Shown here: positions 2,471 through 58,337 of the stretch, piece by piece
How positions within the stretch are numbered: position 1 is the stretch's first letter
Layout: every line of letters starts with the position of its first letter
Assembly: GCA_002394165.1 (NCBI GenBank)
Contig: DGTA01000057.1
Location: 8,477-72,476 of the forward strand
Origin: Lachnospiraceae bacterium UBA4348
GTDB lineage: Bacteria > Bacillota > Clostridia > Lachnospirales > Lachnospiraceae
Reading direction: 5' to 3'
Length of the DNA stretch: 64,000 bases
The notes under the pieces: generated by a model
The model's database searches: none
Told to the model about the DNA's origin: nothing
What the model saw: the letters and a program-made list of their open reading frames with translations, nothing else
Program-made: the position numbers and the translations under genes

Positions 2471-3580
2471 TTATTTTATCACACATGAATAATAATCAAT
2501 GTTTTTAACATCACGTACTTCACCATCGTCGAAGACGATCCGGGAAACCCCGACCCATACGGTGTAGACAGAGGCGAGGTATCCCAGGTTGAAGGAGTCG
2601 CAGTAGACTGTCTCGCCCGGCCGGACGGTCTGTGTTTTGGTGGAGGTGTAGACCGGCGTATCGGCGACTCTTTCACCCCAGACATCGGTAGTATACAGGC
2701 TCAGCTCGTAGCCTCTGATCGTCCTTGTGGATGAAGTGTTGGTCACCTGCACTCTGAAGAAGAATGTGTTGACGGACGGCACGCCATCCCATTTGAAGCT
2801 TGAACCGATCACCAGCGGGATTTCCGGTTCTTTACGGGGATTGGCAAGCCCTGAAAATATCATATCCTGTGTGATTGCATCGGCCTCGGGACTCGATCCC
2901 AGGCCGTTTTGTTCGTTCAGTTCTTTCACTGCAGCGGCGGTCTTCGGGCCGTAAGAGCCGTCCGCCTTGTCCGCCAGATAGCCCAGGGCTATGAGCTTTT
3001 CCTGAAGTTTTTTAACATCCTCTCCCTTATCTCCCTGTCTGAGCACATGATAAACGGGTGCCGGCTCGGTCACGGGCTCGGTTTCCGGTTCCTCGATGTG
3101 ACGCCCGCCTTCGAGTTCTTTCAGGTCGACGGACGCTTTCTCCCGGTACAGCTCCTCTTCGGAATCTTTATCCTTGAGCACCAGTGTGACGTCGAGACGC
3201 CGGGCCGAGGAGAGAGCCGCCGTTCCGGCCTGGGCATTATCGCTCGAAGTGATGATCAGTGCGGAAGCGTCATCCTCATGATTCTCGTTTATCCCGGTAT
3301 CCGAGTGAGGCTTTGAGGATAAAAAACCGGTGCCGAGAACGCCGACCCCGTCCACGGTCAGGTCTTTGAACAGAAGGGATAGTTCTCTGTCGGTATCATT
3401 GATGATCCTGGCGTACAGGTACATATCGGCGTTGGTATTCTTGAACCGGAGGATCTCGTAGCCGGTCAGGTAAACGCTGTAGCCGTCATGGCTGAAAAAT
3501 GCCTCTTCAGCCATGGCCGATGAAGATACCATTCCCATCAACATAAAAAACAGCAGAAAGATGAGTGCTTTTTTCTTCAT
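2471..3580 (-). CDS. secreted protein with peptidoglycan-binding (PG_binding_1-like) domain
   Basis: Signal peptide MKKKALIFLLFFMLMGMVSSSAMA. The motif LRQGDKGEDVKKLQEKLIALGYLADKADGSYGPKTAAAVKEL is present. AAGGAGG lies upstream of the ATG. Confidence 0.8.
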   Translation of the reverse strand: MKKKALIFLLFFMLMGMVSSSAMAEEAFFSHDGYSVYLTGYEILRFKNTNADMYLYARIINDTDRELSLLFKDLTVDGVGVLGTGFLSSKPHSDTGINENHEDDASALIITSSDNAQAGTAALSSARRLDVTLVLKDKDSEEELYREKASVDLKELEGGRHIEEPETEPVTEPAPVYHVLRQGDKGEDVKKLQEKLIALGYLADKADGSYGPKTAAAVKELNEQNGLGSSPEADAITQDMIFSGLANPRKEPEIPLVIGSSFKWDGVPSVNTFFFRVQVTNTSSTRTIRGYELSLYTTDVWGERVADTPVYTSTKTQTVRPGETVYCDSFNLGYLASVYTVWVGVSRIVFDDGEVRDVKNIDYYSCVIK

Positions 3581-9798: not shown

Positions 9799-10009
9799 CC
9801 TCGGGATCCGCGTCAAGGTCATCCTGCCTGACGGCATGGCGGAGCAGGCGAAGGAGCCGGCTGTTGTCCCTGCCGGATCTGGCGGGGGCGGGAGTTTCTT
9901 CCTGTGTATCCACTGCAGGGGTCAGGGACCGGTTCTCCGTTTTCTGAGGGAGGGACAGGTCGATCCCCGCTGTGATCTCCTGCAGCTGTGAAAATGATAA
10001 TCTGATCAT
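9791..10009 (-). CDS. possible small hypothetical protein (72 aa), low confidence
   Basis: An ATG preceded by GAAAGAAAGG. The tail overlaps 9052..9798 by 8 nt. Composition is low-complexity and Arg/Leu-rich, so it may be non-coding. Confidence 0.25.
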   Translation of the reverse strand: MIRLSFSQLQEITAGIDLSLPQKTENRSLTPAVDTQEETPAPARSGRDNSRLLRLLRHAVRQDDLDADPEVS

Positions 10010-10109
10010 AACTTAACCTTTCTTTCTATAAGTAAACGCCCGGGGGCAATTATTGCTCTCACAGTAAGATACGAATCGGGCTGAGACTATCCACAAAAGG
10101 AGGAAAAAG

Positions 10110-11150
10110 ATGAGCGGCAATACGCATATCCTGAAGGAAAGACCCATCCGGTGGGGGCTTTTGGGAGCAGGTGTGATCCTGGACCGCTGGCTGAAAGGAG
10201 CCATGCAGGCGGAGGGCACACAGATCGCGGCGGTCGCCTCGCGGACGATCGAAACTGCGAGAAGACAGGCGGATAAATACAAGATCCCCGAGGCGCTTAC
10301 TTATGATGAGATCCTGAAGCGGAAGGACATCGACATCATGTACATTCCGGTGCCGCATATGGCGCACAGGGATCTTGCACTGCGGGCGATGGAAGCGGGC
10401 TTCCATGTGCTTGTGGAGAAACCCGCCGGCGTAACGGCAAAGGAATGGGACGAGATGACGGCCTGCGCCGCCAGAAATCATGTTTTTCTCATGGAGGCAG
10501 TCTGGACCAACTGTTTCCCCATCATGAAGCGGCTGCGTGAAGAACTCGATTCGGGCAGGATCGGCGATGTCCGGAATGTCCAGGCAAATTTCGCTTTCCG
10601 CGTGGACGACGATTATCAGGGCAGGCTGACTGATCCCGCCCAGGCCGGCGGCGGCCTGCTGGATGTAGGCGTCTACACACTGCATTTTGCACAGAATGTT
10701 TTCGGGACTTCACCGGAAAAGCTGGTCTCCTTCGCGTCAATGGACACGGATGACCTTCATCTGAAGGTGGATGAGCAGTGTGCCGTCATCGGCCAGTATA
10801 AGAACGGGGCCCTGGCGGTCCTCCAGGCGGCGATCCGGACTGCCATGCCCGATACCGCGTGGATCTACGGGACGAAGGGATACATCCGCATGCCGGTCTT
10901 CTGGAAACCGTCCGTGATGGAGATCACCACGCAGGAGGGGACCAAGACTGTTTCGATGCCGGTCTCACAAAAGCTGGAGGGCATCGAGGACGAGGGCTAC
11001 CAGTACGAAGTGAGACACGTAAATGACTGCCTGCGGCAGGGACTGACCGAGTCACCGCTGGTGCCGCATGATGTGACGAGGGCCGTGCTCAGGCAGTGCG
11101 ACGCCCTGCGCGCGCAGTGGGGACTGAAGTATCCGTTTGAAGAAATGTGA
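10110..11150 (+). CDS. Gfo/Idh/MocA family oxidoreductase
   Basis: AAAGGAGG RBS. N-terminal Rossmann motif IRWGLLGAGVI and the EKP motif (VLVEKPAG). Confidence 0.9.
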   Translation: MSGNTHILKERPIRWGLLGAGVILDRWLKGAMQAEGTQIAAVASRTIETARRQADKYKIPEALTYDEILKRKDIDIMYIPVPHMAHRDLALRAMEAGFHVLVEKPAGVTAKEWDEMTACAARNHVFLMEAVWTNCFPIMKRLREELDSGRIGDVRNVQANFAFRVDDDYQGRLTDPAQAGGGLLDVGVYTLHFAQNVFGTSPEKLVSFASMDTDDLHLKVDEQCAVIGQYKNGALAVLQAAIRTAMPDTAWIYGTKGYIRMPVFWKPSVMEITTQEGTKTVSMPVSQKLEGIEDEGYQYEVRHVNDCLRQGLTESPLVPHDVTRAVLRQCDALRAQWGLKYPFEEM

Positions 11151-11179: not shown

Positions 11180-11770
11180 ATGAAATGGATGATCGCGTCC
11201 GATCTTCACGGATCGGCTTACTACTGCCGGAAAATGCTGGAAGCCTTTGAACGGGAGAAGGCAGACCGGCTGCTTTTTCTTGGAGATATTCTCTACCACG
11301 GCCCGCGAAACGATCTGCCGCGGGATTACGCCCCGAAGGAAGTCATCCGGATGATGAATTCCCTCTCAGACCGGATCCTGGCCGTGCGGGGCAACTGCGA
11401 GGCCGAGGTGGACCAGATGGTCCTGGACTTCCCGGTCCTCGCTTCCTACGCCGTTCTGGAGCTGGGCGCCGGCACGGGCAGCAGCGGCAGCATCATATAC
11501 GCCACCCACGGCCATGTCTGGAACATTGACAACCTGCCGCCTCTTAAAAAAGGCGACATCCTGCTGTACGGACATACGCACGTGCCGCTTTGCGAAGAAA
11601 AAGACGGGATACATTGCCTGAACCCGGGGTCCGTGTCACTGCCCAAAGAAGGCAGCGAACACAGCTATATGACGCTCGAAAACGGCGTATTTTCCTGGGT
11701 TTCTTTTGAGGGGTCTGACCCTTTTCGCACGTTGAAGTGCAAAAGTTTTGAGGGGGAGGAGATAAGGTGA
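11180..11770 (+). CDS. YfcE/MJ0936-type metallophosphoesterase; the 3' end runs into a family-A repeat
   Basis: MKWMIASDLHGS...LGDILYHGPRN...VRGNCE...THGH...YGHTH. ATG at 11180 follows GGAGG. The last roughly 20 codons (EGSDPFRTLKCKSFEGEEIR) are encoded by the repeat. Confidence 0.85.
   Translation: MKWMIASDLHGSAYYCRKMLEAFEREKADRLLFLGDILYHGPRNDLPRDYAPKEVIRMMNSLSDRILAVRGNCEAEVDQMVLDFPVLASYAVLELGAGTGSSGSIIYATHGHVWNIDNLPPLKKGDILLYGHTHVPLCEEKDGIHCLNPGSVSLPKEGSEHSYMTLENGVFSWVSFEGSDPFRTLKCKSFEGEEIR
11708..11756. repeat. family-A palindromic repeat, degenerate full element
   Basis: GAGGGGTCTGACCCTTTTCGCAC-GTTGAA-GTGCAAAAG..TTTTGAGGGGG. The left arm matches 40388..40410, the loop is the reverse complement of the 40411..40416 loop, and the right arm is partly deleted. 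Confidence 0.7.
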
Positions 11771-11781
11771 ACGGGAACAGT

Positions 11782-12510
11782 ATGCTGGAGATCCGCCATT
11801 ACTCGAAATCCTACGGCGGAGGGAAGAAGGCGGCGGATGATGTGTCCCTGACCGTGGAATGCGGGGATATCTGCGGCTTTATCGGCCACAACGGCGCCGG
11901 CAAGTCGACGACGATCCGTGCTGTGGTGGGCGTCCTGGATTTTACGGAGGGCGAGATTTTTATCGGCGGGCATTCGGTGAAGGATGAACCGATGGAATGC
12001 AAGAAGATCACGGCGTATATTCCGGACAATCCGGATCTTTACGAGAACCTGACGGGCATCCAGTACCTGAATTTTATCGCGGATGTTTTTGAGCTTGGGG
12101 CCGCCGAGCGGGAGGAGCGCATCAGAAAGTACGGGGATCTGTTTGAGATCACGCGGGATCTGGGCGACCTGATCAGCTCCTATTCCCACGGGATGAAGCA
12201 GAAGGTGGCGATCATCTCCGCGCTGATCCATGAGCCGAAGCTTCTTGTGCTGGATGAGCCTTTTGTGGGCCTCGATCCGAAGGCGTCCTTTACACTGAAG
12301 GAGATCATGCATGAAATGTGTGATCGGGGGACGGCGGTCTTCTTTTCAACTCATGTGCTCGATGTGGCGGAGAAGCTGTGCAACAAGGTGGCAATCATAA
12401 AGCACGGCAGGATCATTTTTTCCGGGACCATGGAAGAACTGACGGAAGGCCAGTCACTGGAAGAGGCATTTCTGGAGGCGGATCATGAAGAAATACAGCA
12501 TTCTTCTTAA
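11782..12510 (+). CDS. ABC transporter ATP-binding protein
   Basis: Walker A GHNGAGKST, signature SHGMKQKV, Walker B LLVLDEP. Confidence 0.9.
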   Translation: MLEIRHYSKSYGGGKKAADDVSLTVECGDICGFIGHNGAGKSTTIRAVVGVLDFTEGEIFIGGHSVKDEPMECKKITAYIPDNPDLYENLTGIQYLNFIADVFELGAAEREERIRKYGDLFEITRDLGDLISSYSHGMKQKVAIISALIHEPKLLVLDEPFVGLDPKASFTLKEIMHEMCDRGTAVFFSTHVLDVAEKLCNKVAIIKHGRIIFSGTMEELTEGQSLEEAFLEADHEEIQHSS

Positions 12511-14074
12511 GACGATGCTCCTGTCCTCCAGCCTGGGGAATATCCGCAGGCACACGTATGACAGGAAAAAGAAAAGAAAGATCATCGGAAGCCGCATCGG
12601 TCTTACGCTCCTGTGCGCGATGCTCATTGCCTACAGCATCCTGATCTGTGTCGGCTTCGGAAAGATCGGGATGACCGGTGCGGTCCCGGTGATGTGTGCC
12701 CTGGTGATCAGCTCGCTCGCTTTTGTATTCACCTTTTTGAAGTCCAACGGATATCTGTTCAACTTTAAGGAATACGACATGCTGATGGCGCTCCCGTTTA
12801 AGACGAGGACCGTCGCCGCCTGCAAGTTCCTGTATATGTATATCAAGAGCCTGCCATGGTACCTGAGCATCTCCGCTGCCATGCTGGCCGGATATGCGTA
12901 CTATGCTCGGCCGCCCTTCTATACCTATATCATATGGATCATCCTGTCCCTGATCCTGCCGGTGATCCCGATGCTGGCGGCGTCATTTATCGGATTTCTG
13001 ATCGCGAAGATCAGCTCGGGATTTAAGAAGACCAACCTGATCCAGACGATCTTTACCTTCGTGATCATCGTCCTGAGCTTCAGCCTGCGCTACATTATAG
13101 AGGCGCTGATCGGAGACGATAAGATAGAAGCGGTTTTAAGCGGCATTTCGATGATGACAGGCCGGGCTTCGGGGATCTACTTTCCGGCCGGGTGGTTTGC
13201 CGCTGCGGTCACCAGGACGGATATTCCGAAGATGCTGGCACTGACCGGACTTAGCTTCGCGTTATTCGCAGCGGTGTTTTACATCGTCGGAAACTCCTAC
13301 AGGCAGATCAACTCCGCGATCAGGTCCCATGCCGCGTCGAAGAACTACCGGATGAGAAGACAGAAGAAGAGCAGTGTGGTCAATGCGATCGCCTTCAAGG
13401 AATTCAAGAGGCTGACCGGATCCACCGTGTACATGACGAACGCTGCGGTCGGCGAGCTTCTGGCCGCCCTGCTGGGGATCATCACCCTTGTTCTCGGCTT
13501 TGACAGGATCATCGCGATCATCACGCAGGGGGCGCCCATCGACCCGGCCATACTCCAACCGGCCATCCCCTTTGTCGTGTACTTCTTTGTCGGCATGGTG
13601 GCGACCACGGCATGCTCCCCGTCGCTGGAGGGAAAGAACTACTGGATCCTGCAGAGCCTGCCGATCGAAAAAAAGACGATCCGCCAGGGAAAAATGTTGT
13701 TTAATATGTACCTTACAGTTCCCTTTATGCTGTTTGCCGTACTTTGTATGTGTCTGTCATTCAAAGTTCCACTCCTCAACACGGTGCTGTACCTGATCCT
13801 GGGAGTCGCGCTGTGCGCCTTCTCCACAGCCTGGGGCTGCGTTTGCGGAGTCTGGCATATGCGCACAGACTGGGAGAACGAGGTGGAAGTGATCAAGCAG
13901 GGTGCGGCGGTCGTCATCTACATGCTGCCCAACATGCTTGCTGCGATGGGGCTGGTCGTGCTGATGGTGTGGCTTGGCACAAAGATGGATCATACGCTGC
14001 TGACAGTCATCGCAATCGGGATCGCCGGGCTGCTGGCGGGAGTGTGCTACAAGATCGCGATCCGGCTCCGCTGA
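12485..14074 (+). CDS. large polytopic ABC exporter permease-like protein (529 aa)
   Basis: Overlaps the ATPase gene by 26 nt. It has 10 or more hydrophobic helices. Family assignment (putative ABC exporter type) is from memory only. Confidence 0.7.
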   Translation: MKKYSILLKTMLLSSSLGNIRRHTYDRKKKRKIIGSRIGLTLLCAMLIAYSILICVGFGKIGMTGAVPVMCALVISSLAFVFTFLKSNGYLFNFKEYDMLMALPFKTRTVAACKFLYMYIKSLPWYLSISAAMLAGYAYYARPPFYTYIIWIILSLILPVIPMLAASFIGFLIAKISSGFKKTNLIQTIFTFVIIVLSFSLRYIIEALIGDDKIEAVLSGISMMTGRASGIYFPAGWFAAAVTRTDIPKMLALTGLSFALFAAVFYIVGNSYRQINSAIRSHAASKNYRMRRQKKSSVVNAIAFKEFKRLTGSTVYMTNAAVGELLAALLGIITLVLGFDRIIAIITQGAPIDPAILQPAIPFVVYFFVGMVATTACSPSLEGKNYWILQSLPIEKKTIRQGKMLFNMYLTVPFMLFAVLCMCLSFKVPLLNTVLYLILGVALCAFSTAWGCVCGVWHMRTDWENEVEVIKQGAAVVIYMLPNMLAAMGLVVLMVWLGTKMDHTLLTVIAIGIAGLLAGVCYKIAIRLR

Positions 14075-14166
14075 CATAGAAAAGGCCTGCAAAATATTCT
14101 TGCGAACGCGCGGAGGATATGTTATGTTATTCCCAGTATATTTCTAGAAAGAAAGGGGAATACCTG

Positions 14167-14334
14167 ATGAGAAAAGAATATGAAGCTCCGAAGGCAGAGA
14201 AACTTGATTTTGATTATTCAGAAGTCGTAACAGCCAGCAATACGGGTACGGGCTGCATGATCGCCGGTATGACCACAACATATTCGGATGGAAGCGGCAA
14301 CACTTATCAGACATCTGTTCCCGGCGACGAATAA
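14167..14334 (+). CDS. candidate RiPP precursor peptide (55 aa)
   Basis: MRKEYEAPKAEKLDFDYSEVVTAS / NTGTGCMIAGMTTTYSDGSGNTYQTSVPGDE. The N-half is charged and leader-like; the C-half is Gly/Thr/Ser-rich with one Cys. AAGGGG RBS. It lies directly upstream of the rSAM/SPASM gene. Confidence 0.6.
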   Translation: MRKEYEAPKAEKLDFDYSEVVTASNTGTGCMIAGMTTTYSDGSGNTYQTSVPGDE

Positions 14335-14350
14335 AGAGAAATTGTAAAAA

Positions 14351-14377
14351 GCGCCTCGTTTTCGAGGCGTTTTTTTG
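14351..14377 (+). terminator. intrinsic terminator/attenuator between precursor and maturase
   Basis: GCGCCTCG-TTTT-CGAGGCG followed by TTTTTTT, 17 nt after the precursor stop. Confidence 0.65.
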
Positions 14378-14400
14378 ATTTGACGGAGGTCGTGTTCAAG

Positions 14401-15549
14401 ATGAAGGAGCCGAAAAATGGCTTTGAATACCTGAAAAGAAGGCATGAGCAGGAACTGGGGAAAAACGTCCGTTTTTCCGGATTCAAACGGTACCTGGAAG
14501 TGAAGGCCCGTGAAAAGGGAACCCCTGTCAGCGGCCAGTTTGAACTGACGCCGCTCTGCAATTTCGACTGCAGGATGTGTTACGTCCACCTCCGGAAAGA
14601 CCAGCTTAAAACGCAGGATGTCATGACGGCGGATCAGTGGAAGCAGCTGATCAGGCAGGCCTGGGAGATGGGCCTGATCAGGGCGACCCTGACAGGGGGT
14701 GAGTGCCTGGCGTACCCCGGGTTTAAAGAGATCTATCTGTATCTGCACAGCCTCGGCTGCGAGGTCGTGGCGCTGACGAACGGTTTTTTGATCGATGACG
14801 ACTGGATCCGCTTTTTCAGGGAGCATCCGCCGGCGCAGATCCGGATCACCCTCTACGGATACGATGACGATACTTATGAAAATGTGACGGGTCGAAGATG
14901 CTTTGACCGGATCCGCGCGAATATCCTGAAGCTGAAGGATGCGGGGATGCCGCTGACGATCTCGGTGACGCCCAACCGCTTTCTCGGGGAGGGAGTCTTT
15001 GAGACGATCCGCACGGCCAAAAGCCTGTGCCAAAGCGTCCTGATCAGCAATACGCTGTTTGCCCCGAGGCAGGAGACCGGACGGGCGCAGGAAGGGCATA
15101 AGATCAGCGATGAAGATTACCTTCGGATGTACACGCTGATAAATGAGCTGGACGGAAAGGAGACGGTCCCGATCCCCAAAGACGAGCTGCCGCCGGCGGG
15201 CGGTCCTTCCCATGAGTGCAGGGAATGCGGGGTCGAGTGCGGCGCCGGACGATCGGGCTTCAGTATAGACTGGAAGGGAACCATGCGTCCCTGCACCCGG
15301 TTTTATGCGATCGAGGCGTTTCCGCTGCGGGACGGATTTGAAAAAGCCTGGCGGGAAATGAACCGGGTGGCCGCTTCCTGGCCGCGGGTCGCCGAATGTG
15401 AGGGCTGCGCCTACGCCACGGCCTGCATCAGGTGTCCGGCCAATATGCTTGCCTATGCCGAAGCGGGAGTACAGCCGGTTAAAATGTGTGAGAGGACAAT
15501 GTTTTTCGTGGAAAACGGGGTCTGGAACATCCCGGAATGCGATGACTGA
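14401..15549 (+). CDS. radical SAM enzyme with C-terminal SPASM domain (peptide maturase-like)
   Basis: CNFDCRMC (CxxxCxxC) and a GGECLAYPGF GGE motif. C-terminal Cys clusters are CRECGVECGAGRSGFSIDWKGTMRPC (Gx4C) and CEGCAYATACIRC. Confidence 0.85.
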   Translation: MKEPKNGFEYLKRRHEQELGKNVRFSGFKRYLEVKAREKGTPVSGQFELTPLCNFDCRMCYVHLRKDQLKTQDVMTADQWKQLIRQAWEMGLIRATLTGGECLAYPGFKEIYLYLHSLGCEVVALTNGFLIDDDWIRFFREHPPAQIRITLYGYDDDTYENVTGRRCFDRIRANILKLKDAGMPLTISVTPNRFLGEGVFETIRTAKSLCQSVLISNTLFAPRQETGRAQEGHKISDEDYLRMYTLINELDGKETVPIPKDELPPAGGPSHECRECGVECGAGRSGFSIDWKGTMRPCTRFYAIEAFPLRDGFEKAWREMNRVAASWPRVAECEGCAYATACIRCPANMLAYAEAGVQPVKMCERTMFFVENGVWNIPECDD

Positions 15550-16834: not shown

Positions 16835-17638
16835 ATGACAATAAAAAAGTTACTGCCGGTGCTGGTCTGCACCGCTGCTGTATTCTGCGCGGCGGGGGCC
16901 GTGCGGGCGTCAAAGCCTGATCTTGAAAGTGTTGAAATGGTGGCCCTGATACAGGAAGGCCTCAATGCCGCCGGATACGACTGCGGCACGGCCGACGGCA
17001 TCGCCGGCGAAAACACAAAAGCGGCTATCCGCAGCTACCGGGAGGCGAACGCTCTGCCGGAGGGCGATCAGATCGATGCCGGGCTTTTCAACGCCCTGAC
17101 GCTGACCGGTGAAGAGCAGGCGCTTGTGCATAAGGCGGAGGAGATCTGCGCCGATGTGCTGGAGGAGGGCAATGAGACGGGGGAGATCACCCTGTATGAA
17201 GGGGACCTGTACATAACCGTCCTTCCGGACTATACGGCGCAGGAACTGCTCCCGGTCCAGGAGACCGCCCAGGCCGTCACAAAGGCCATCGCCGCGGAGG
17301 AGGATCTCTCGCCGCTGTGGGAGACCGTTACCTTCAGCTTCGGTGTGCTCGGTGAGATCGAAAACAGGAAAGAAGACTACCAGAACATCACAGGCGTGAA
17401 GGAAGCGCTGGACGAGTACGAGGCTTTTATCGCCGGATACTGCACCTTCATGCAGGACTTCGACGGGAAAAATCCGGCTGCGCTGTCGTCGTATTTCTCA
17501 CTGGTTCAGGAATATGATGCGTACGAGGAGAAGATCGGGGCCATGAAGGAGGCCATGATGTCAGAGGAGGACCGCCGGTACTTTGACGAGGTGCTGGAGA
17601 GGGTGCAGGAGCAGCTGGCCGGGGTGGAGCAGCAGTGA
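16835..17638 (+). CDS. secreted protein with peptidoglycan-binding domain
   Basis: ATG at 16835 gives the MTIKKLLPVLVCTAAVFCAAGAVRA signal. The motif LIQEGLNAAGYDCGTADGIAGENTKAAIRSYREANAL is present. Confidence 0.75.
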   Translation: MTIKKLLPVLVCTAAVFCAAGAVRASKPDLESVEMVALIQEGLNAAGYDCGTADGIAGENTKAAIRSYREANALPEGDQIDAGLFNALTLTGEEQALVHKAEEICADVLEEGNETGEITLYEGDLYITVLPDYTAQELLPVQETAQAVTKAIAAEEDLSPLWETVTFSFGVLGEIENRKEDYQNITGVKEALDEYEAFIAGYCTFMQDFDGKNPAALSSYFSLVQEYDAYEEKIGAMKEAMMSEEDRRYFDEVLERVQEQLAGVEQQ

Positions 17639-17640
17639 GC

Positions 17641-17702
17641 CAGGAGACATATCTTCTGACTCACTAAAAAAGCGAGTCAGGAGATACATCCCCTGACTCA
17701 CC
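17641..17702. repeat. family-C palindromic repeat (GAGTCAGGAGATACATCCCCTGACTC plus a degenerate partner)
   Basis: 17675..17699 differs by 1 nt from 39775..39799. The stem is GAGTCAGG/CCTGACTC. It lies between convergent genes. Confidence 0.8.
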
Positions 17703-17707
17703 GGCAT

Positions 17708-18007
17708 TTACTCTGTTACAAGATAGTTGGCGTTCACATAGCCTCTTCCATTGGTTTTGGGTGAATATACCCACACATAAGGATTTCCGTCCCGGCCGAC
17801 GGTATTGCCGCCTTCGATAAAGACGTAATCTCCGTTGAAGAGCTCGTGGCCGCGCTGCTCATTGCCGTGGTCATAATTAGGCTGGGTGCGCAGTGCCAGG
17901 TAGCCGGTTTTGAGGTTGGCTACTTTTCTCCTGTAGATGTTGCCGGTGGCATTACCGCCGCTTACGCCGGCAAGTTCTTCTTCGTTGATTTTATTGAGAT
18001 CGGTCAT
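17708..18007 (-). CDS. double-glycine (bacteriocin-type) leader fused to an SH3-like domain, paralog 1
   Basis: MTDLNKINEEELAGVSGG|NATGNIY... Hydrophobic residues at -4, -7, -12 and -15 fit the GG-leader pattern. The core GYLALRTQP...GDYVFIEG...YVWVYSPKTNGRGYVNANYL looks like bacterial SH3. GGAGG RBS. Confidence 0.75.
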   Translation of the reverse strand: MTDLNKINEEELAGVSGGNATGNIYRRKVANLKTGYLALRTQPNYDHGNEQRGHELFNGDYVFIEGGNTVGRDGNPYVWVYSPKTNGRGYVNANYLVTE

Positions 18008-18059
18008 GGTTTATACCTCCGTTTATTAATGATCGCGTGTTGTCCGCTGTTTATATTCT

Positions 18060-18089
18060 ATTATACGTTGGAGTGCGGCTGAAATCTAC
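18060..18089 (-). promoter_or_regulatory. putative sigma-70-type promoter of GG-SH3 paralog 1
   Basis: On the minus strand this reads TGTAGATT-N17-TATAAT (the -10 is the reverse complement of 18060..18065). The same TGTRGAT-N17-TATAAT-A layout occurs at 34260..34289. Confidence 0.35.
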
Positions 18090-18426: not shown

Positions 18427-19185
18427 GTGGAAAAATATGTTGCGATCAACGAAGAAGGCTTCAGCATAAGGGGAAAGATCTATGCGCGGGAGATGAGCGG
18501 GATCGGCCGGGTCATCCTTTTCGGACACGGCTTTGGCGGTCACAGGGACAACAAGGCGGCCGAGAGGTTCGCGAGGCGTATCCTGGAGAAAAATAAGGGA
18601 GTGGCGGTCATGACCTTTGACTGGCCCTGCCACGGGAGCGATGCCCGCAAAAAGCTGCGCCTCGAGGAATGCGACACGTATCTGCGGCTGGTGCTGGAAT
18701 TCATCCGCAGCCGGTTTTCCGACCCGGAGATCTACGCATATGCGACGAGCTTCGGGGCGTACCTGTTCCTGAAATACATGGCTGAGCACGGGAAAGTGTT
18801 TGTCAGGACCGCGCTTCGAAGCCCTGCGGTCAACATGTATGAATCGATCACCGGAGATATCATGACGGACGCCGACCGCAGCCTGATCGGGAAGGGAAAG
18901 CCGGCGAAGGTAGGCTTTGACAGGAAGGTTGAGATCGACGGAGAGTTCCTGGAGAGCCTGAAGCAGGCTGATATCCGGGAAATTGATTTCCTCGATTTCG
19001 CGGATGATATCCTGATCATTCACGGGACGAAGGACGAGATCATTCCTTTGGAAGTGGTGAAAGCGTTCTCGGAGCAGAACGTGATCGAGCTGGTCGAGGC
19101 GGAGGGAGCTGACCACCGGTTCCAGAACCCGCTGCATATGGACGAAGCGATCGCCCGGATCGCCGCCTTTTTCGGAATGCGATAA
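18427..19185 (+). CDS. alpha/beta hydrolase
   Basis: GTG start. LFGHGFGGHRDN, a nucleophile-elbow-like YATSFGAY, and C-terminal GADHRF. Confidence 0.8.
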   Translation: MEKYVAINEEGFSIRGKIYAREMSGIGRVILFGHGFGGHRDNKAAERFARRILEKNKGVAVMTFDWPCHGSDARKKLRLEECDTYLRLVLEFIRSRFSDPEIYAYATSFGAYLFLKYMAEHGKVFVRTALRSPAVNMYESITGDIMTDADRSLIGKGKPAKVGFDRKVEIDGEFLESLKQADIREIDFLDFADDILIIHGTKDEIIPLEVVKAFSEQNVIELVEAEGADHRFQNPLHMDEAIARIAAFFGMR

Positions 19186-34379: not shown

Positions 34380-34688
34380 ATGATGGAAGATATCAAGAAA
34401 ATCAATGATCAGGCACTTGAGGATGTTACCGGCGGTACCGTTGGTTATCAGGGACAGTGGATGACAGTCCGCAATCTGTCGGACGGCTATCTGGCAATCA
34501 GGACAGCTCCGGCTTTCCAGTATGAGAACGAGATCAACCACATCGGTCTTTACAACGGTGAGCAGGTTCAGATCGCCGGCCAGCCGGTTCAGGGCTCCGG
34601 CATCAACGGCACAAAAGCCACCTACGCATATGTCTATGCTCCCAAGTTCGGCTGCTACGGCTATGTGAACGCTTACTACCTTGGCTGA
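34380..34688 (+). CDS. double-glycine leader fused to an SH3-like domain, paralog 2
   Basis: GGAGG lies 8 nt before the ATG at 34380. MMEDIKKINDQALEDVTGG|TVGYQGQW... The core GYLAIRTAP...GEQVQIAG...YAYVYAPKFGCYGYVNAYYLG aligns with 17708..18007. Confidence 0.75.
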   Translation: MMEDIKKINDQALEDVTGGTVGYQGQWMTVRNLSDGYLAIRTAPAFQYENEINHIGLYNGEQVQIAGQPVQGSGINGTKATYAYVYAPKFGCYGYVNAYYLG

Positions 34689-36876: not shown

Positions 36877-36949
36877 ACGTTTCACAGGATAATTGATTAT
36901 TGAAAGGGAGAGACACAGCCGGGGCAGCCCGAAGCTGTGCAGACGACCT

Positions 36950-39748
36950 ATGCTGACGATCGATCAAGTTTACAAGGAGTACCGGACCGGCACACTGGTG
37001 CAGAAAGCGCTGGACGGAGTCTCCATCTCTTTCAGAGAACGGGAGTTTGTGGCCATTCTTGGGCCGAGCGGTTCCGGAAAAACGACGCTGCTCAATGTGA
37101 TCGGCGGACTGGACCGCTATGACAGCGGTGAGATGACCTTCAACTCCGTTCCGACCAGCAGCTACGGAAACCGGGAGTGGGATACATATCGAAATCATAC
37201 GATCGGTTTTATCTTCCAGAGCTACAACCTGATCCCCCACCAGAGCATCCTCTCGAACGTGGAGCTTGCGCTGACGCTGGCAGGCGTAAAGAAGGAGGAG
37301 CGGCTGAAGAGGGCTAAGGAAGCGCTGGACAGGGTGGGACTCCTCGATCAGGCGTTCAAGAAGCCGATGCAGCTGTCCGGCGGACAGATGCAGAGGGTGG
37401 CGATCGCGCGCGCACTGGTCAACCGCCCGTCCATCCTGCTGGCCGATGAGCCGACGGGAGCCCTCGACTCGGATACCGGCGAGCAGGTGATGAAGCTTCT
37501 CAAGGAGGTATCGCAGGACCACCTGGTCATCATGGTCACGCACAACCCGGATCTGGCCAGGCGCTACGCGACAAGGATCGTCCAGCTGCGGGACGGGAAG
37601 ATCACGGACGACTCCGATCCGTACGAGCCCGATGAGGAAAAGCCCGCCGAAAAGAGTGGCATGCCGGGGCGGAAAAGCTCCATGTCATTTCTGACGGCTC
37701 TCTCCCTGTCTGTCTCAAACCTGCTCTCCAAGAAGGCGCGCACTATTCTGGTGGCGTTTGCCGCGTCGATCGGGATCGTCGGGATCGCGCTGATCCTTTC
37801 GCTCTCAAACGGGGCGAACGCGTATATACACCAGATGGAGAGGGATTCCCTGAGCCAGTATCCCATCGAGATCACCAGCTCGTCCTTCTCTATGGAGGAG
37901 ACGATGATGACGTTCGCCGCCATGCGGCAGAGTGCCGCCTCCACGGACGGGGACGGGATCACCGAACAGCAGATGATGGGCGGGATGCTCTCCTCGGCGA
38001 GCATCAACGACCTGGCTTCCCTGAAGCGCTGGTTCGACAGCGGCTACAGCGGGATGGAGGAGTACACGCGCGGGATCGATTACAGCTACGGGATCAGCCC
38101 GCAGATCTACCGCCTGCAGGAGGACGGGTACCGTCAGGTGAACCCGGACCAGACGATGGCGGCGTTCGGCGTGAGTATGGATGACGCGCTGACCGGCGCC
38201 ATGAGCGGATACAGCTTCAACGAAATGTTCCTGCCCCTGCCGGACAATCGGGCCCTGTATGAGGGGGATTACGACCTGCTGGCCGGCTCGTGGCCGAAGA
38301 AGGACACGGACCTGGTCCTGGTGCTGTCCGGTTCGGGCGGCATCCCGGACTTTATGCTCTACACGATGGGGCTGAAGGATTCCGATGAGCTCAATGAGCA
38401 GATCCAGAATGTGGTCGCCGGCAACGGCTCCGGGATCAGGAGCGAGGACCTGCAGGACAACCGGGTGTACGATCCCGAGGAGTTCCTCGGCATTTCCTTC
38501 AAGCTGCTTCCGGCTTATTCATTGTTTGAAAAAGATGAGAACGTGGGGCTCTGGCTGGATCAGTCCGGCAACGAGAAGAAAGTCCTGAAGCTGCTTGAAA
38601 AAGCGGAGGATATGAATATCGTCGGCGTGGTGCGCCCTTCGGAGGATGTTTCCTTCGGGATCCTGGGGATCGGCCTGGAGTATCAGCCCGGGCTGCTTAA
38701 ACGCCTGATGCGGGAGGCCGGAGAGAGTGACGTGGTCCTTGCCCAGAACGCATCGCCCGATGTCAATATCCTGACGGGGACGGCCTTCGGCGAGGATGAT
38801 TTCTCCTCGATGGACTCTTATCTGGATATGATCGAGCTGCATCCGGAGCATCTGGACGAGGCGGTCTCCATCCGCTGGGACAGGCTCGGGGAGCTGGAGA
38901 CGGACGATACGCGCCTGAGCGCCAAACGCCTGGTGAGGATCACCAGGGAGCTTTCGAGAACCGGAAAATCCCCGACACTCGAGAAGATGTTTGAGGCGGC
39001 GCTGCCTCTCATGAAAGACCTGATCGAGATCGATGAAGAGAAGATCGGCGACGTCATATCGTTTGCGATGGATGAGAACAGGATGCAGGAGATGTATTCC
39101 GCCCGCGCCGCTGCCCAGAGCGCGACCTTAAGCGGAAACCTGACCCGGTTCGGGTACGCCGATGAAGAGACGCCCATGAGGGTGACCATCTATCCGAGTG
39201 ATTTTGACAGCAAGAGCGAGGTGATCCGCCTGCTCGACGCCTACAACGAGGCGGTGAAGGAAGAAGGATATGAAGAGAAGGTGATCTCCTACACGGACTA
39301 TGTCGGTGCGCTGATGTCTTCCGTAACGACGATCATCGATGTGATCACCTACGTGCTGATCGCATTCGTGGCCGTCTCCCTGGTGGTGTCTTCGATCATG
39401 ATCGGGATCATCACCTATATCTCCGTCCTGGAGAGGCGCAAGGAGATCGGCATACTGCGTGCGATGGGCGCTTCGCGCTACAACATTACGCAGGTGTTCA
39501 ACGCGGAGACCTTTATTATCGGGCTGCTGTCAGGCGCCTTCGGCATGGGTATCACCCTGGCGGCGCTGGTCCCGATCAATATTGTGATCCAGAAGCTGGC
39601 AGAGCAGCGGCATATCCGCGCCTTCCTGCCGCCCGGAGCCGGAGCGGTGCTGATCGTCCTTTGCATCGTCCTGACGTTTATCGGCGGGTTCATTCCGTCC
39701 AGGCAGGCGGCCAGGCAGGATCCGGTAGCAGCGCTTCGAAGCGAATGA
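36950..39748 (+). CDS. MacB-like fused ABC ATPase plus FtsX-type permease
   Basis: GPSGSGKTT, LSGGQMQRVAIARAL and LLADEPTGALD, then a large extracytoplasmic region and a C-terminal FtsX-like 4-TM block (EIGILRAMGA). Confidence 0.9.
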   Translation: MLTIDQVYKEYRTGTLVQKALDGVSISFREREFVAILGPSGSGKTTLLNVIGGLDRYDSGEMTFNSVPTSSYGNREWDTYRNHTIGFIFQSYNLIPHQSILSNVELALTLAGVKKEERLKRAKEALDRVGLLDQAFKKPMQLSGGQMQRVAIARALVNRPSILLADEPTGALDSDTGEQVMKLLKEVSQDHLVIMVTHNPDLARRYATRIVQLRDGKITDDSDPYEPDEEKPAEKSGMPGRKSSMSFLTALSLSVSNLLSKKARTILVAFAASIGIVGIALILSLSNGANAYIHQMERDSLSQYPIEITSSSFSMEETMMTFAAMRQSAASTDGDGITEQQMMGGMLSSASINDLASLKRWFDSGYSGMEEYTRGIDYSYGISPQIYRLQEDGYRQVNPDQTMAAFGVSMDDALTGAMSGYSFNEMFLPLPDNRALYEGDYDLLAGSWPKKDTDLVLVLSGSGGIPDFMLYTMGLKDSDELNEQIQNVVAGNGSGIRSEDLQDNRVYDPEEFLGISFKLLPAYSLFEKDENVGLWLDQSGNEKKVLKLLEKAEDMNIVGVVRPSEDVSFGILGIGLEYQPGLLKRLMREAGESDVVLAQNASPDVNILTGTAFGEDDFSSMDSYLDMIELHPEHLDEAVSIRWDRLGELETDDTRLSAKRLVRITRELSRTGKSPTLEKMFEAALPLMKDLIEIDEEKIGDVISFAMDENRMQEMYSARAAAQSATLSGNLTRFGYADEETPMRVTIYPSDFDSKSEVIRLLDAYNEAVKEEGYEEKVISYTDYVGALMSSVTTIIDVITYVLIAFVAVSLVVSSIMIGIITYISVLERRKEIGILRAMGASRYNITQVFNAETFIIGLLSGAFGMGITLAALVPINIVIQKLAEQRHIRAFLPPGAGAVLIVLCIVLTFIGGFIPSRQAARQDPVAALRSE

Positions 39749-39750
39749 AT

Positions 39751-39805
39751 GTGAGTGAGACAGTGAGTCAGGGTGAGTCAGGAGATACGTCCCCTGACTT
39801 ACTCT
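39751..39805. repeat. family-C palindromic repeat
   Basis: GTGAGTGAGACAGTGAGTCAGGGTGAGTCAGGAGATACGTCCCCTGACTTAC. The core matches 17675..17699. Confidence 0.8.
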
Positions 39806-56774: not shown

Positions 56775-58337
56775 ATGATGAATCACAGGAAATGGAAACT
56801 GGCGCTGCGCAGCGGGATCCTGATGGCCGCGATCGCGTCTTTTGCCCTGGGGGCCGGCGCCGGAGAGGCAGAGCAGGTCTCTTTTGAGGGAAACCTGAAA
56901 AAGATAACGACGGCCGCGGATTTTGAGGCCGGGACCCTGACGGATCTTTCGATCGATCCCGAAATCGGGGACGGTGCTCTTGTGCTGGAAGAGAATGCGC
57001 TGACGGGAAGCTTTGAATCGGCTGTCTATGAGGGCAGTACGTTTTCGGACATGGTGGCCTGCTGGAACGCGGCCATCTACGAAGGCGGGCAGGTCGAGGT
57101 CTTTGCGCGGGCGCGATATGACGGACAGTGGACGCAGTATCTTACCTGGGGACCGTTCACTCCGTTCGATACGAGAGGCTCGAAAGAGAATAAGGAAGAT
57201 GAGGCTGCCATGGTTGACCAGGATACCTTCTGTATGGCGGATGACAGGGTGGCGGACGCGTTCCAGATGAAGGCGGTCCTGAGGCGCGACGACGCCGGAA
57301 AGACTTCTCCTGTGTTGAGGATGCTGTCCATGACTTTCAGGGGCGGCGAGATGGTGCCGACATACGCGGAGGAGCCGGTGAAGGAGATCCCGGATAAGAT
57401 CCTGATCGGATCCCCCGCTTTCTCGCAGCTGATCCGGGCGCCGCGGATCGCGCCGGATATCTGCTCGCCCACGACCATGACGGTGATGATGGACAGCCGC
57501 GTCCCGGAGCTTAATATCCTCCCGGATGAATATGCGCTCAGCATCAGGGACGAGGAAGAGGATATCTTCGGAAGCTGGGCTTTTACCGTGGCGGGCGCCG
57601 GGCTGTACGGCTTTGAGGCGTATCCGCAGTTCGCGGATGAGAACATTCTCATGCAGGAACTGGCCAAAGGACATGCGACCGGTGTGAATATCCGTTATAC
57701 CAACCTGGAAGGGACGGACGATCCGTACCTCGAAGGTGCCTTCGACAGGACCGGCGGGCATCTGCTGTGCCTGATCGGCTATGAGTATGAGGATGGTGTG
57801 CGCGATGATGATCATCTGTATTTCTACAGCGCCGATTCATTCTCGGACAGCGACCGCACCAGCTACCGGAGGTATAAATGGACGCAGCTTAAAGACTGCA
57901 TCAGGGGAATGGCCTACATCATACCGGATGACAAACAGGAAGTGACCGGAGACTATGCCCCGGGGATCATCCGCCGGAGCGTGGAGCTGCGCAGGGATGA
58001 AGAGAGGAACGACACCTGGATCTTCTGCGAAAACGGTGAGGATATCGATATGGAGTGGTGCGCGCGCGGAAAAGGATTTTTTGCCGTCAGCACGGCGGGC
58101 AGTGAGGAGAAGGCTCCGATCGCTACCGATCACTCGATCGTATATGAAAATGCCGTGTTTACCGAGGCAAATGATGAATTCTATTACGGGATCGTCAACC
58201 GCCGGGACGGCTCGGTCATCTTAAACCGGGAGGAGCTGGTGAAAAAGCTCGGGCTGGAGGATCCGGACGCAGAGATCAAGGTCTGGGCCGTTTCTGACCG
58301 GGGTGTCTGCTATGAGGCGGTGCTGCCGGAGCAGTAA
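56775..58337 (+). CDS. secreted protein with a C39-like (papain-fold) cysteine peptidase domain
   Basis: Signal peptide. SQLIRAPRIAPDICSPTTMTVMM (Cys block) and GGHLLCLIGYEYED...LYFYSADS (His block) follow the Peptidase_C39_2 pattern. Confidence 0.55.
   Translation: MMNHRKWKLALRSGILMAAIASFALGAGAGEAEQVSFEGNLKKITTAADFEAGTLTDLSIDPEIGDGALVLEENALTGSFESAVYEGSTFSDMVACWNAAIYEGGQVEVFARARYDGQWTQYLTWGPFTPFDTRGSKENKEDEAAMVDQDTFCMADDRVADAFQMKAVLRRDDAGKTSPVLRMLSMTFRGGEMVPTYAEEPVKEIPDKILIGSPAFSQLIRAPRIAPDICSPTTMTVMMDSRVPELNILPDEYALSIRDEEEDIFGSWAFTVAGAGLYGFEAYPQFADENILMQELAKGHATGVNIRYTNLEGTDDPYLEGAFDRTGGHLLCLIGYEYEDGVRDDDHLYFYSADSFSDSDRTSYRRYKWTQLKDCIRGMAYIIPDDKQEVTGDYAPGIIRRSVELRRDEERNDTWIFCENGEDIDMEWCARGKGFFAVSTAGSEEKAPIATDHSIVYENAVFTEANDEFYYGIVNRRDGSVILNREELVKKLGLEDPDAEIKVWAVSDRGVCYEAVLPEQ

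Follow-up and report, generated by a model that had tools for sequence, protein, structure and literature searches.

An open reading frame on the minus strand at positions 17708..18007 of the window (the whole 64-kb stretch of DNA that was analysed, from a rumen Lachnospiraceae bacterium) encodes a 99-aa protein, referred to here as paralog 1, in which a predicted double-glycine (GG) leader is followed by a cargo modelled as one SH3b domain. We propose that its product is a single-copy wall-binding module exported by a C39 peptidase-containing ABC transporter (PCAT), a reading to which we give a probability of roughly 0.6 for export and wall binding together; our confidence in any particular ecological role for the exported module is much lower. 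Both the binding of a wall ligand and the biological role are what we infer, the binding from the extracytoplasmic architectures in which relatives of the protein carry the same domain. The features of the gene, and of a second copy in the window, are listed below.

17708..18007 (-): coding sequence, with its stop codon, of paralog 1, the 99-aa GG-leader/SH3b protein
17954..18007 (-): double-glycine leader MTDLNKINEEELAGVSGG, codons 1-18, with predicted cleavage after Gly18 (profile on 94 relatives)
17711..17953 (-): predicted mature 81-aa protein, codons 19-99, with residues 23-99 as an SH3b-like barrel
18016..18020 (-): RBS GGAGG, 8 nt 5' of the ATG, read from sequence
18060..18088 (-): possible promoter, read by eye
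17671..17702 (-): intrinsic-terminator-like hairpin of 14 pairs, then TTTTTAG, 6 nt past the stop codon; a palindromic repeat copy
34380..34688 (+): paralog 2, a 102-aa GG-leader/SH3b protein with leader MMEDIKKINDQALEDVTGG, 41% identical to paralog 1

Judged from its sequence, the open reading frame is a real gene, since a protein identical to paralog 1 (P0001) has been called on 17 public contigs, its coding log-odds are +30, and the comparison with an 81% identical ortholog in a Porcincola MAG (L011) gave a dN/dS of 0.17, a value that indicates purifying selection. The gene is set between a convergent gene (16835..17638, +), whose product carries PG_binding_1 and DUF6591, and a divergent alpha/beta hydrolase gene (18427..19185, +), and is thus monocistronic, as the initial annotation of this DNA had it. 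That annotation had also given the gene its own promoter and RBS: the RBS GGAGG stands, while the promoter is weak, combining a perfect -10 TATAAT (18065..18060) and a 17-nt spacer with a weak 3/6 -35 TAGATT (18088..18083), and the promoter scan returned no site upstream of paralog 1 at its threshold. The repeat hairpin described at the 3' end was recovered as a 14-pair hairpin belonging to a small palindromic repeat family, and the existence of a second copy of the gene, already implied by the numbering of the paralogs, was likewise confirmed at 34380..34688 (+).

The N-terminus of paralog 1 reads as a conserved double-glycine leader. The signature first picked out from the letters alone (GG, V-4, L-7, I-12 and L-15) was exact in its positions and is conserved in 94 relatives; G17-G18 supply G-2 and G-1, and position -8 is occupied by Glu. 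The leader fits the recognition consensus L(-12)-X3-E(-8)-L(-7) and has the residues corresponding to V-4, L-7 and L-12, which bind in pockets of the peptidase (PMC6363468), a code known from the LahT and PCAT1 structures (PMC6363468, PMC6959990). Of the six-frame ORFs of 25 aa or longer in the 64-kb window, that of paralog 1 alone matched the strict leader pattern.

The leader profile was built on 94 non-identical single-domain relatives, anchored at the GG, with a modal leader length of 18. Since this set had been chosen by G[GAS] and by hydrophobic residues at -4 and -7, those columns are partly circular, and the high counts that they show (G at -2 in 94/94; at -1, G in 93 and A in 1; L-7 in 80/94) are to be read accordingly; the selection-independent evidence therefore lies in E-8 (79/94), I/L/M/V at -12 (91/94), K/R at -13 (84/94) and M/I/F/L at -15 (88/94), together with the sharp boundary past the GG, where column information falls from >4 bits to ~1 bit at +1 to +9. 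The GG is also at least 90% conserved in the 50-sequence family alignment.

Curated leader models scored paralog 1 under their cut-offs, with 12.0 bits against 15.7 for TIGR01847 and 16.4 bits against 27.1 for PF10439. Across the 50 family members the recurring weak matches, all of them sub-threshold, were exclusively to GG-leader families: PF10439 in 29/50, and also TIGR01847, the CTB family, class IIb bacteriocins and lantibiotic leaders. Because the leader is acidic, hydrophilic and predicted to be disordered (pLDDT < 50 at residues 1-22 in the AlphaFold2 model), the N-terminus is not a Sec signal.

The cargo is predicted to have an SH3b-type fold. AlphaFold2, supplied with the family alignment, placed residues 23-99 of paralog 1 in an SH3 barrel with pLDDT > 90. 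In Foldseek searches with this model, the top PDB matches were all SH3 domains (best E = 0.03), the PDB matches including the bacterial-type SH3b of Trichomonas NlpC (TMq 0.54, rmsd 2.5 A, 75 columns), and the top matches in the viral database BFVD were wall-binding SH3b modules from phage endolysins (E from 4e-4 upwards); the E-values obtained with the modelled cargo are modest in both databases. In direct scans, paralog 1 gave no match to Pfam SH3_3 (PF08239) even at E <= 10, and thus stays under its gathering score; all that Pfam and NCBIfam returned for it were the sub-threshold leader matches and a spurious Kelch_3. SH3_3 was weakly matched by only 5/50 family members (best E = 0.013), and the family profile found nothing meaningful among PDB sequences, the best match being an OTU protein at E = 0.12. 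Mature paralog 1 is a protein of 9.16 kDa with a pI of 9.0 and a GRAVY of -0.87, it has no amphipathic or membrane segment, and its computed volume is ~11,260 A^3; the pI of mature paralog 2 is 6.4. Within the domain of paralog 1, R40, N49, E50, Y77 and K84 are invariant positions.

An SH3-like cargo had been proposed at the outset, and the AlphaFold2 model, the SH3 and SH3b matches in Foldseek and the homology to PF08239-positive repeats all agree with that proposal. It had been said that homologues lacking the GG motif, or a predicted fold other than SH3, would count against it; the homologues keep the motif and the predicted fold is SH3-like.

Database searches retrieved four relatives for paralog 1 and 45 for paralog 2, all of ~100 aa, unnamed and without Pfam domains, and the single-domain GG-leader/SH3b design is common to about 100 relatives. 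HMMER with the family profile against 1.84 billion representatives returned 377 proteins at E <= 0.001. Many of the strongest matches hold 2-5 tandem copies of the domain and are aligned to profile positions ~21-99 only, such tandem-repeat proteins being matched at E down to 1.7e-48. The seven longer relatives that were scanned, multi-repeat or multi-domain, all pass the SH3_3 gathering score on the same repeats (7/7; the repeats of P0050 reach 87.9 bits against PF08239 in 5 stretches), and profile comparison in this way indicates that the cargo is homologous to PF08239-positive proteins. The longer relatives further carry signal peptides, lipoprotein-like N-termini, a zinc ribbon with a membrane anchor, or a Ser/Thr kinase with a membrane anchor.

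An architecture census was made on the best 149 of the 377 representatives. Multi-repeat proteins account for 88 of these 149; a hydrophobic N-terminal segment is present in 77/88 and a GG leader at the N-terminus in 0/88, with a chance internal motif match in two. The strict GG pattern occurs in 40 single-domain proteins, about eight further single-domain proteins show GG, GA or SG leaders by eye, and the remainder of the best 149 are fragments or Sec-signal proteins. Full-length single-domain forms have the GG leader and no Sec signal. Since the multi-repeat relatives have Sec signals or membrane anchors and the single-domain forms a GG leader, the domain is predicted to be extracytoplasmic wherever an export signal can be read, and in the single-domain family the GG leader is predicted to replace the Sec signal. 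The family thus appears to be a wall-binding module that passed from the Sec to the GG-leader/PCAT pathway and persists as stand-alone genes, scattered and several to a genome.

Both export routes for the domain coexist in one organism, since the Porcincola MAG has three GG-leader genes and two genes for Sec-signal proteins with the same domain. The latter two (L026 9620..10174 and L030 9626..10198) encode Sec-signal proteins of 184 and 190 aa, each consisting of a canonical SH3_3 domain and one SH3b copy of the family type. At two other loci GG-leader SH3b genes are paired, 1.5 to 6 kb apart (L023 8458..8763 and 9998..10303; L024 3847..4182 and 9983..10312), an arrangement that points to local duplication of the family; the pair in L023 flanks a gene for an EamA transporter.

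The mechanism that we propose would begin with a PCAT encoded elsewhere in the genome, whose C39 cysteine-peptidase domain would recognise the face formed by V-4, L-7, E-8 and I-12, cut after Gly18 and allow the cargo to be translocated. The 81-residue product, starting NATGNIY, would then form a single SH3b (SH3_3-type) beta-barrel, as the computed fold and homology suggest, and this free domain would bind a cell-envelope ligand, either peptidoglycan or a wall polymer, of the same class as that bound by its Sec-secreted or membrane-anchored relatives. Those relatives belong to related rumen Clostridia and mostly carry 2-5 tandem copies. A single soluble copy might occupy, or compete for, wall sites on the producer or on its neighbours, with no lysis and no pores.

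The cavity of PCAT1 is ~15,000 A^3 and its natural cargo is 66 aa long, with a volume of ~9,000 A^3 (PMC6959990); at ~11,260 A^3, the cargo of paralog 1 would fit a cavity of that size. Because the cargo of PCAT1 is unstructured during transport (PMC6959990), an SH3 barrel, which folds fast, might have to be kept from folding in the cytoplasm.

An ecological extension of this mechanism, which we put forward tentatively and consider unlikely, is that rumen Lachnospiraceae release single-copy SH3b modules through the bacteriocin export pathway as decoys or competitors that occupy wall-polymer or peptidoglycan sites. Such modules could possibly act in three ways: by displacing the multivalent SH3b-anchored surface proteins of rivals, by shielding the wall of the producer from SH3b-targeted endolysins or bacteriolysins, or by tuning the anchoring of its own surface proteins. 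If true, this would define a class of PCAT cargo that is neither lytic nor pore-forming, and would be the first natural folded binding domain to serve as a GG-leader substrate.

Every one of the 22 genome loci with homologues belongs to a MAG of Lachnospiraceae or Clostridiales from rumen or gut, and 25 further homologous loci are metagenome contigs. Syntenic orthologs of the two window paralogs are present in the Porcincola MAG. The scan of viral contigs returned no relative of the family, and a phage or prophage origin was rejected on that ground.

As regards the exporter, the initial annotation had reported neither a PCAT nor an immunity gene in the window, and the Pfam scan and motif scan agree with it. 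No PCAT was detected by Pfam among the window ORFs of at least 600 aa, and the Walker A and LSGGQ motifs occur together in one window ORF of at least 300 aa, the MacB-like ABC-FtsX fusion at 36893..39748. A PCAT was likewise absent within ~8 kb past either window end and, in the motif scan, at ~45 homologous loci, many of which are short contigs. No immunity gene, linked modification gene or conserved neighbour turned up either, whether in the window or at those homologous loci. The 107 neighbouring genes at 19 loci were led by PG_binding_1 (4), followed by ABC_tran, GNAT and HAD (3 each), and their 25 commonest families include no C39 or immunity-like family.

PG_binding_1 was rejected as a partner, being found in only 4/107 neighbour genes. 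Secreted PG_binding_1 proteins are encoded in the window itself at 2471..3580 (-) and 16835..17638 (+, with DUF6591, the convergent neighbour of paralog 1), and they give a weak hint of a wall-related neighbourhood.

Two further genes in the window deserve description. The first, at 36893..39748 (+) and thus 2.2 kb downstream of paralog 2, encodes a 951-aa MacB-like ABC-ATPase/FtsX fusion; a copy with 74% identity (L012 6982..9864) ends 137 nt before a GG-SH3b homologue. Its ATPase resembles the export ATPases of the lactococcin-972 type, below cut-off. As this neighbour was seen for only two family genes, paralog 2 and the L012 homologue, its proximity is probably residual synteny, and it may take part in the export of, or the immunity to, GG-SH3b proteins. 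The second, at 56775..58337 (+), encodes a protein of 520 aa that begins with a signal peptide and weakly resembles Peptidase_C39_2 over residues 214-340 (18.7 bits, cut-off 24); it shows plausible Cys (ICSPTT) and His (GGHLLCLIGYE) motifs and is not an ABC transporter. It was set aside as a leader peptidase, being sub-threshold, bearing a signal peptide and lying 39 kb off; the signal peptide would place it on the wrong side of the membrane for a cytoplasmic leader peptidase.

Among the alternatives to a PCAT-exported wall-binding module, the one that survives best is a bacteriocin in the strict sense, that is, a folded domain that kills or inhibits competitors through an essential envelope target, as lactococcin 972 does through lipid II. 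A leader of bacteriocin type, the basic pI of mature paralog 1 (9.0), several diverging copies per genome, and the MacB-like ABC-FtsX gene 2.2 kb from paralog 2, with its 74% identical copy 137 nt from the L012 homologue, are all in keeping with this idea. We nevertheless regard it as quite unlikely: no immunity-like gene, conserved neighbour or recurring small membrane-protein neighbour was found among the 107 neighbouring genes at 19 loci, the ABC-FtsX gene accompanies only two family genes, a GRAVY of -0.87 marks paralog 1 as very hydrophilic, and it lacks any segment of amphipathic or membrane type, paralog 2, with its pI of 6.4, is not basic, and many surface proteins use the same domain as a passive anchoring repeat. 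Class II bacteriocins are small membrane-active peptides, cationic and amphipathic or hydrophobic, that come with a linked immunity gene; paralog 1, modelled as a folded beta-barrel, does not fit that description.

Export might instead follow a route that involves no PCAT, with either a stand-alone C39 peptidase working alongside a generic ABC exporter, or the MacB-type ABC-FtsX protein near paralog 2. No PCAT lies near any family member examined, the ABC-FtsX gene is close to paralog 2 and its 74% identical copy adjoins the L012 homologue, and a weak Peptidase_C39_2-like protein is encoded at 56775..58337, all of which could be accommodated by such a route. This possibility we hold to be somewhat less probable again, for that protein is sub-threshold (18.7 against 24 bits) and its signal peptide puts it on the wrong membrane side, the ABC-FtsX gene is missing at most loci, and in streptococci it is well known that unlinked GG peptides are served by a distant PCAT (cf. 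PMC7018657).

It is highly improbable that the protein stays in the cytoplasm and that its conserved N-terminus is a structural or regulatory helix which merely resembles a GG leader. The absence of an exporter from the window and from the loci examined, and leader HMM scores under the curated cut-offs, would suit this explanation, but at least seven conserved leader positions match the recognition code, conservation is lost abruptly at the cleavage point, the N-terminus is predicted to be disordered and outside the fold, and the other architectures with an intact N-terminus bear a signal peptide or membrane anchor (77/88 multi-repeat relatives).

A radical-SAM cassette lies 2.2 to 6 kb from paralog 1, and here the initial annotation, which saw no modification enzyme in the window, has to be corrected. 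The genes of the cassette are the following.

11767..12510 (+): ABC ATPase
12485..14074 (+): 529-aa ABC_tran_2/12TM permease
14167..14334 (+): 55-aa peptide MRKEYEAPKAEKLDFDYSEVV...
14380..15549 (+): radical-SAM/SPASM-like enzyme, below every NCBIfam equivalog cut-off

From its gene content, 11767..15549 is probably a peptide-modification (RiPP) cassette. It is absent beside the 81% identical ortholog in L011, where the other neighbours are conserved, and is therefore considered unrelated to paralog 1; radical-SAM linkage was rejected on this synteny, the maturase not being a conserved companion of the gene. That paralog 1 is a RiPP precursor modified by the enzyme at 14380..15549, as the proximity of that enzyme and its ABC pair and the weak TIGR04149 matches (rSAM-modified GG-leader peptides) of 8/50 members might suggest, can be dismissed for practical purposes, since the cassette has its own peptide gene at 14167..14334, lies on the other strand from paralog 1 with two unrelated genes in between, is missing beside the close ortholog, and the cargo is confidently folded in the model and has no Cys-rich or repeated core motif. 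A 381-aa radical-SAM gene with a 56-aa ORF was also observed ~4.6 to 6 kb beyond window position 1 (L060 4122..5478); the two adjoin an ABC/BPD_transp_2 importer and may be a paralogous peptide-maturase cassette.

A PCAT-exported single-copy wall-binding module can be placed beside several known systems. Colicin V, a class II microcin with a GG leader, has a cargo of about 88 aa. With the GG-leader substrates of PCAT/AMS (class II bacteriocins, ComC/BlpC pheromones, class II microcins such as colicin V, and CtA of Clostridium thermocellum PCAT1), paralog 1 shares a leader of 15-25 residues ending in GG, with hydrophobic residues at -4, -7, -12 and -15, Glu at -8 and no Sec signal, and an 81-aa cargo in the known size range (CtA, 66 aa; PMC6959990). 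It departs from them in having a hydrophilic cargo predicted to fold as SH3b, where theirs is a short amphipathic, hydrophobic or Gly-rich peptide, in having no linked transporter, immunity or regulator genes, and in HMM scores under the cut-offs.

With the SH3b/SH3_3 (PF08239) domains of endolysins, autolysins, NlpC/P60 hydrolases and surface proteins, it shares the predicted fold, profile homology to the tandem repeats, and the pattern L-x-[LV]-R-x-x-P ... G-x-x-V ... W/Y-x-V ... G-[YW]-V-x-x-x-Y-L. Unlike SH3_3 proteins, paralog 1 has a single copy of the domain, no catalytic or anchoring partner domain and a GG leader in place of a Sec signal; the family also carries a loop insertion, GxxVxGTGxxGxxAT, which sets it apart from the repeat form of SH3b. 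Paralog 1 would accordingly work like a GG-leader substrate combined with an SH3b domain, while by curated HMM thresholds it is formally a member of neither.

Free wall-binding domains arise from internal translation starts in some phage endolysins, such as the clostridial CTP1L and CD27L and the enterococcal Lys170. There, too, a binding module is released as a separate small protein, but those domains are cytoplasmic products of an endolysin gene, associate with the full-length enzyme and are set free when holins bring about lysis, whereas paralog 1 is an independent chromosomal gene with its own predicted export leader. Lactococcin 972, a folded beta-sandwich that binds lipid II, is comparable as a small beta-rich secreted protein aimed at the envelope, sometimes with ABC/FtsX genes near; it differs in being Sec-secreted and of another fold, no homology to it was detected, and the transporter linkage in the present family is sporadic.

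The initial annotation had not recognised the combination of a GG leader with an SH3 domain as a described family, and our searches agree: no model in Pfam or NCBIfam and no paper in the literature retrieved, including a 2026 survey of rumen bacteriocins, covers this arrangement. Our results suggest that peptide exporters also secrete small folded wall-binding proteins. GG leaders and PCATs are usually discussed for short bacteriocins and pheromones, so that a cargo family of folded wall-binding domains would widen their cargo range, would speak to the question whether a PCAT can carry its cargo only in the unfolded state, and would offer a clear example of a single domain that has changed between Sec and PCAT export. 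It may also represent an unrecognised type of interaction at the cell walls of rumen Gram-positive bacteria, and in practical terms the domain could be used as a small tag for targeting the walls of rumen Firmicutes. The family would escape bacteriocin-mining pipelines that rely on curated cut-offs, or on transporter or immunity genes in linkage, because it offers neither.

Finally, the palindromic hairpin repeats at the 3' end of paralog 1, of the form GAGTCAGGAGATAC[A/G]TCCCCTGACTC, make up a small family with three copies in the window, where none is expected by chance.

17637..17662: palindromic repeat copy
17674..17699: palindromic repeat copy
39775..39800: palindromic repeat copy

The first two stand in tandem between the convergent genes, and the third is located just after the ABC-FtsX gene.
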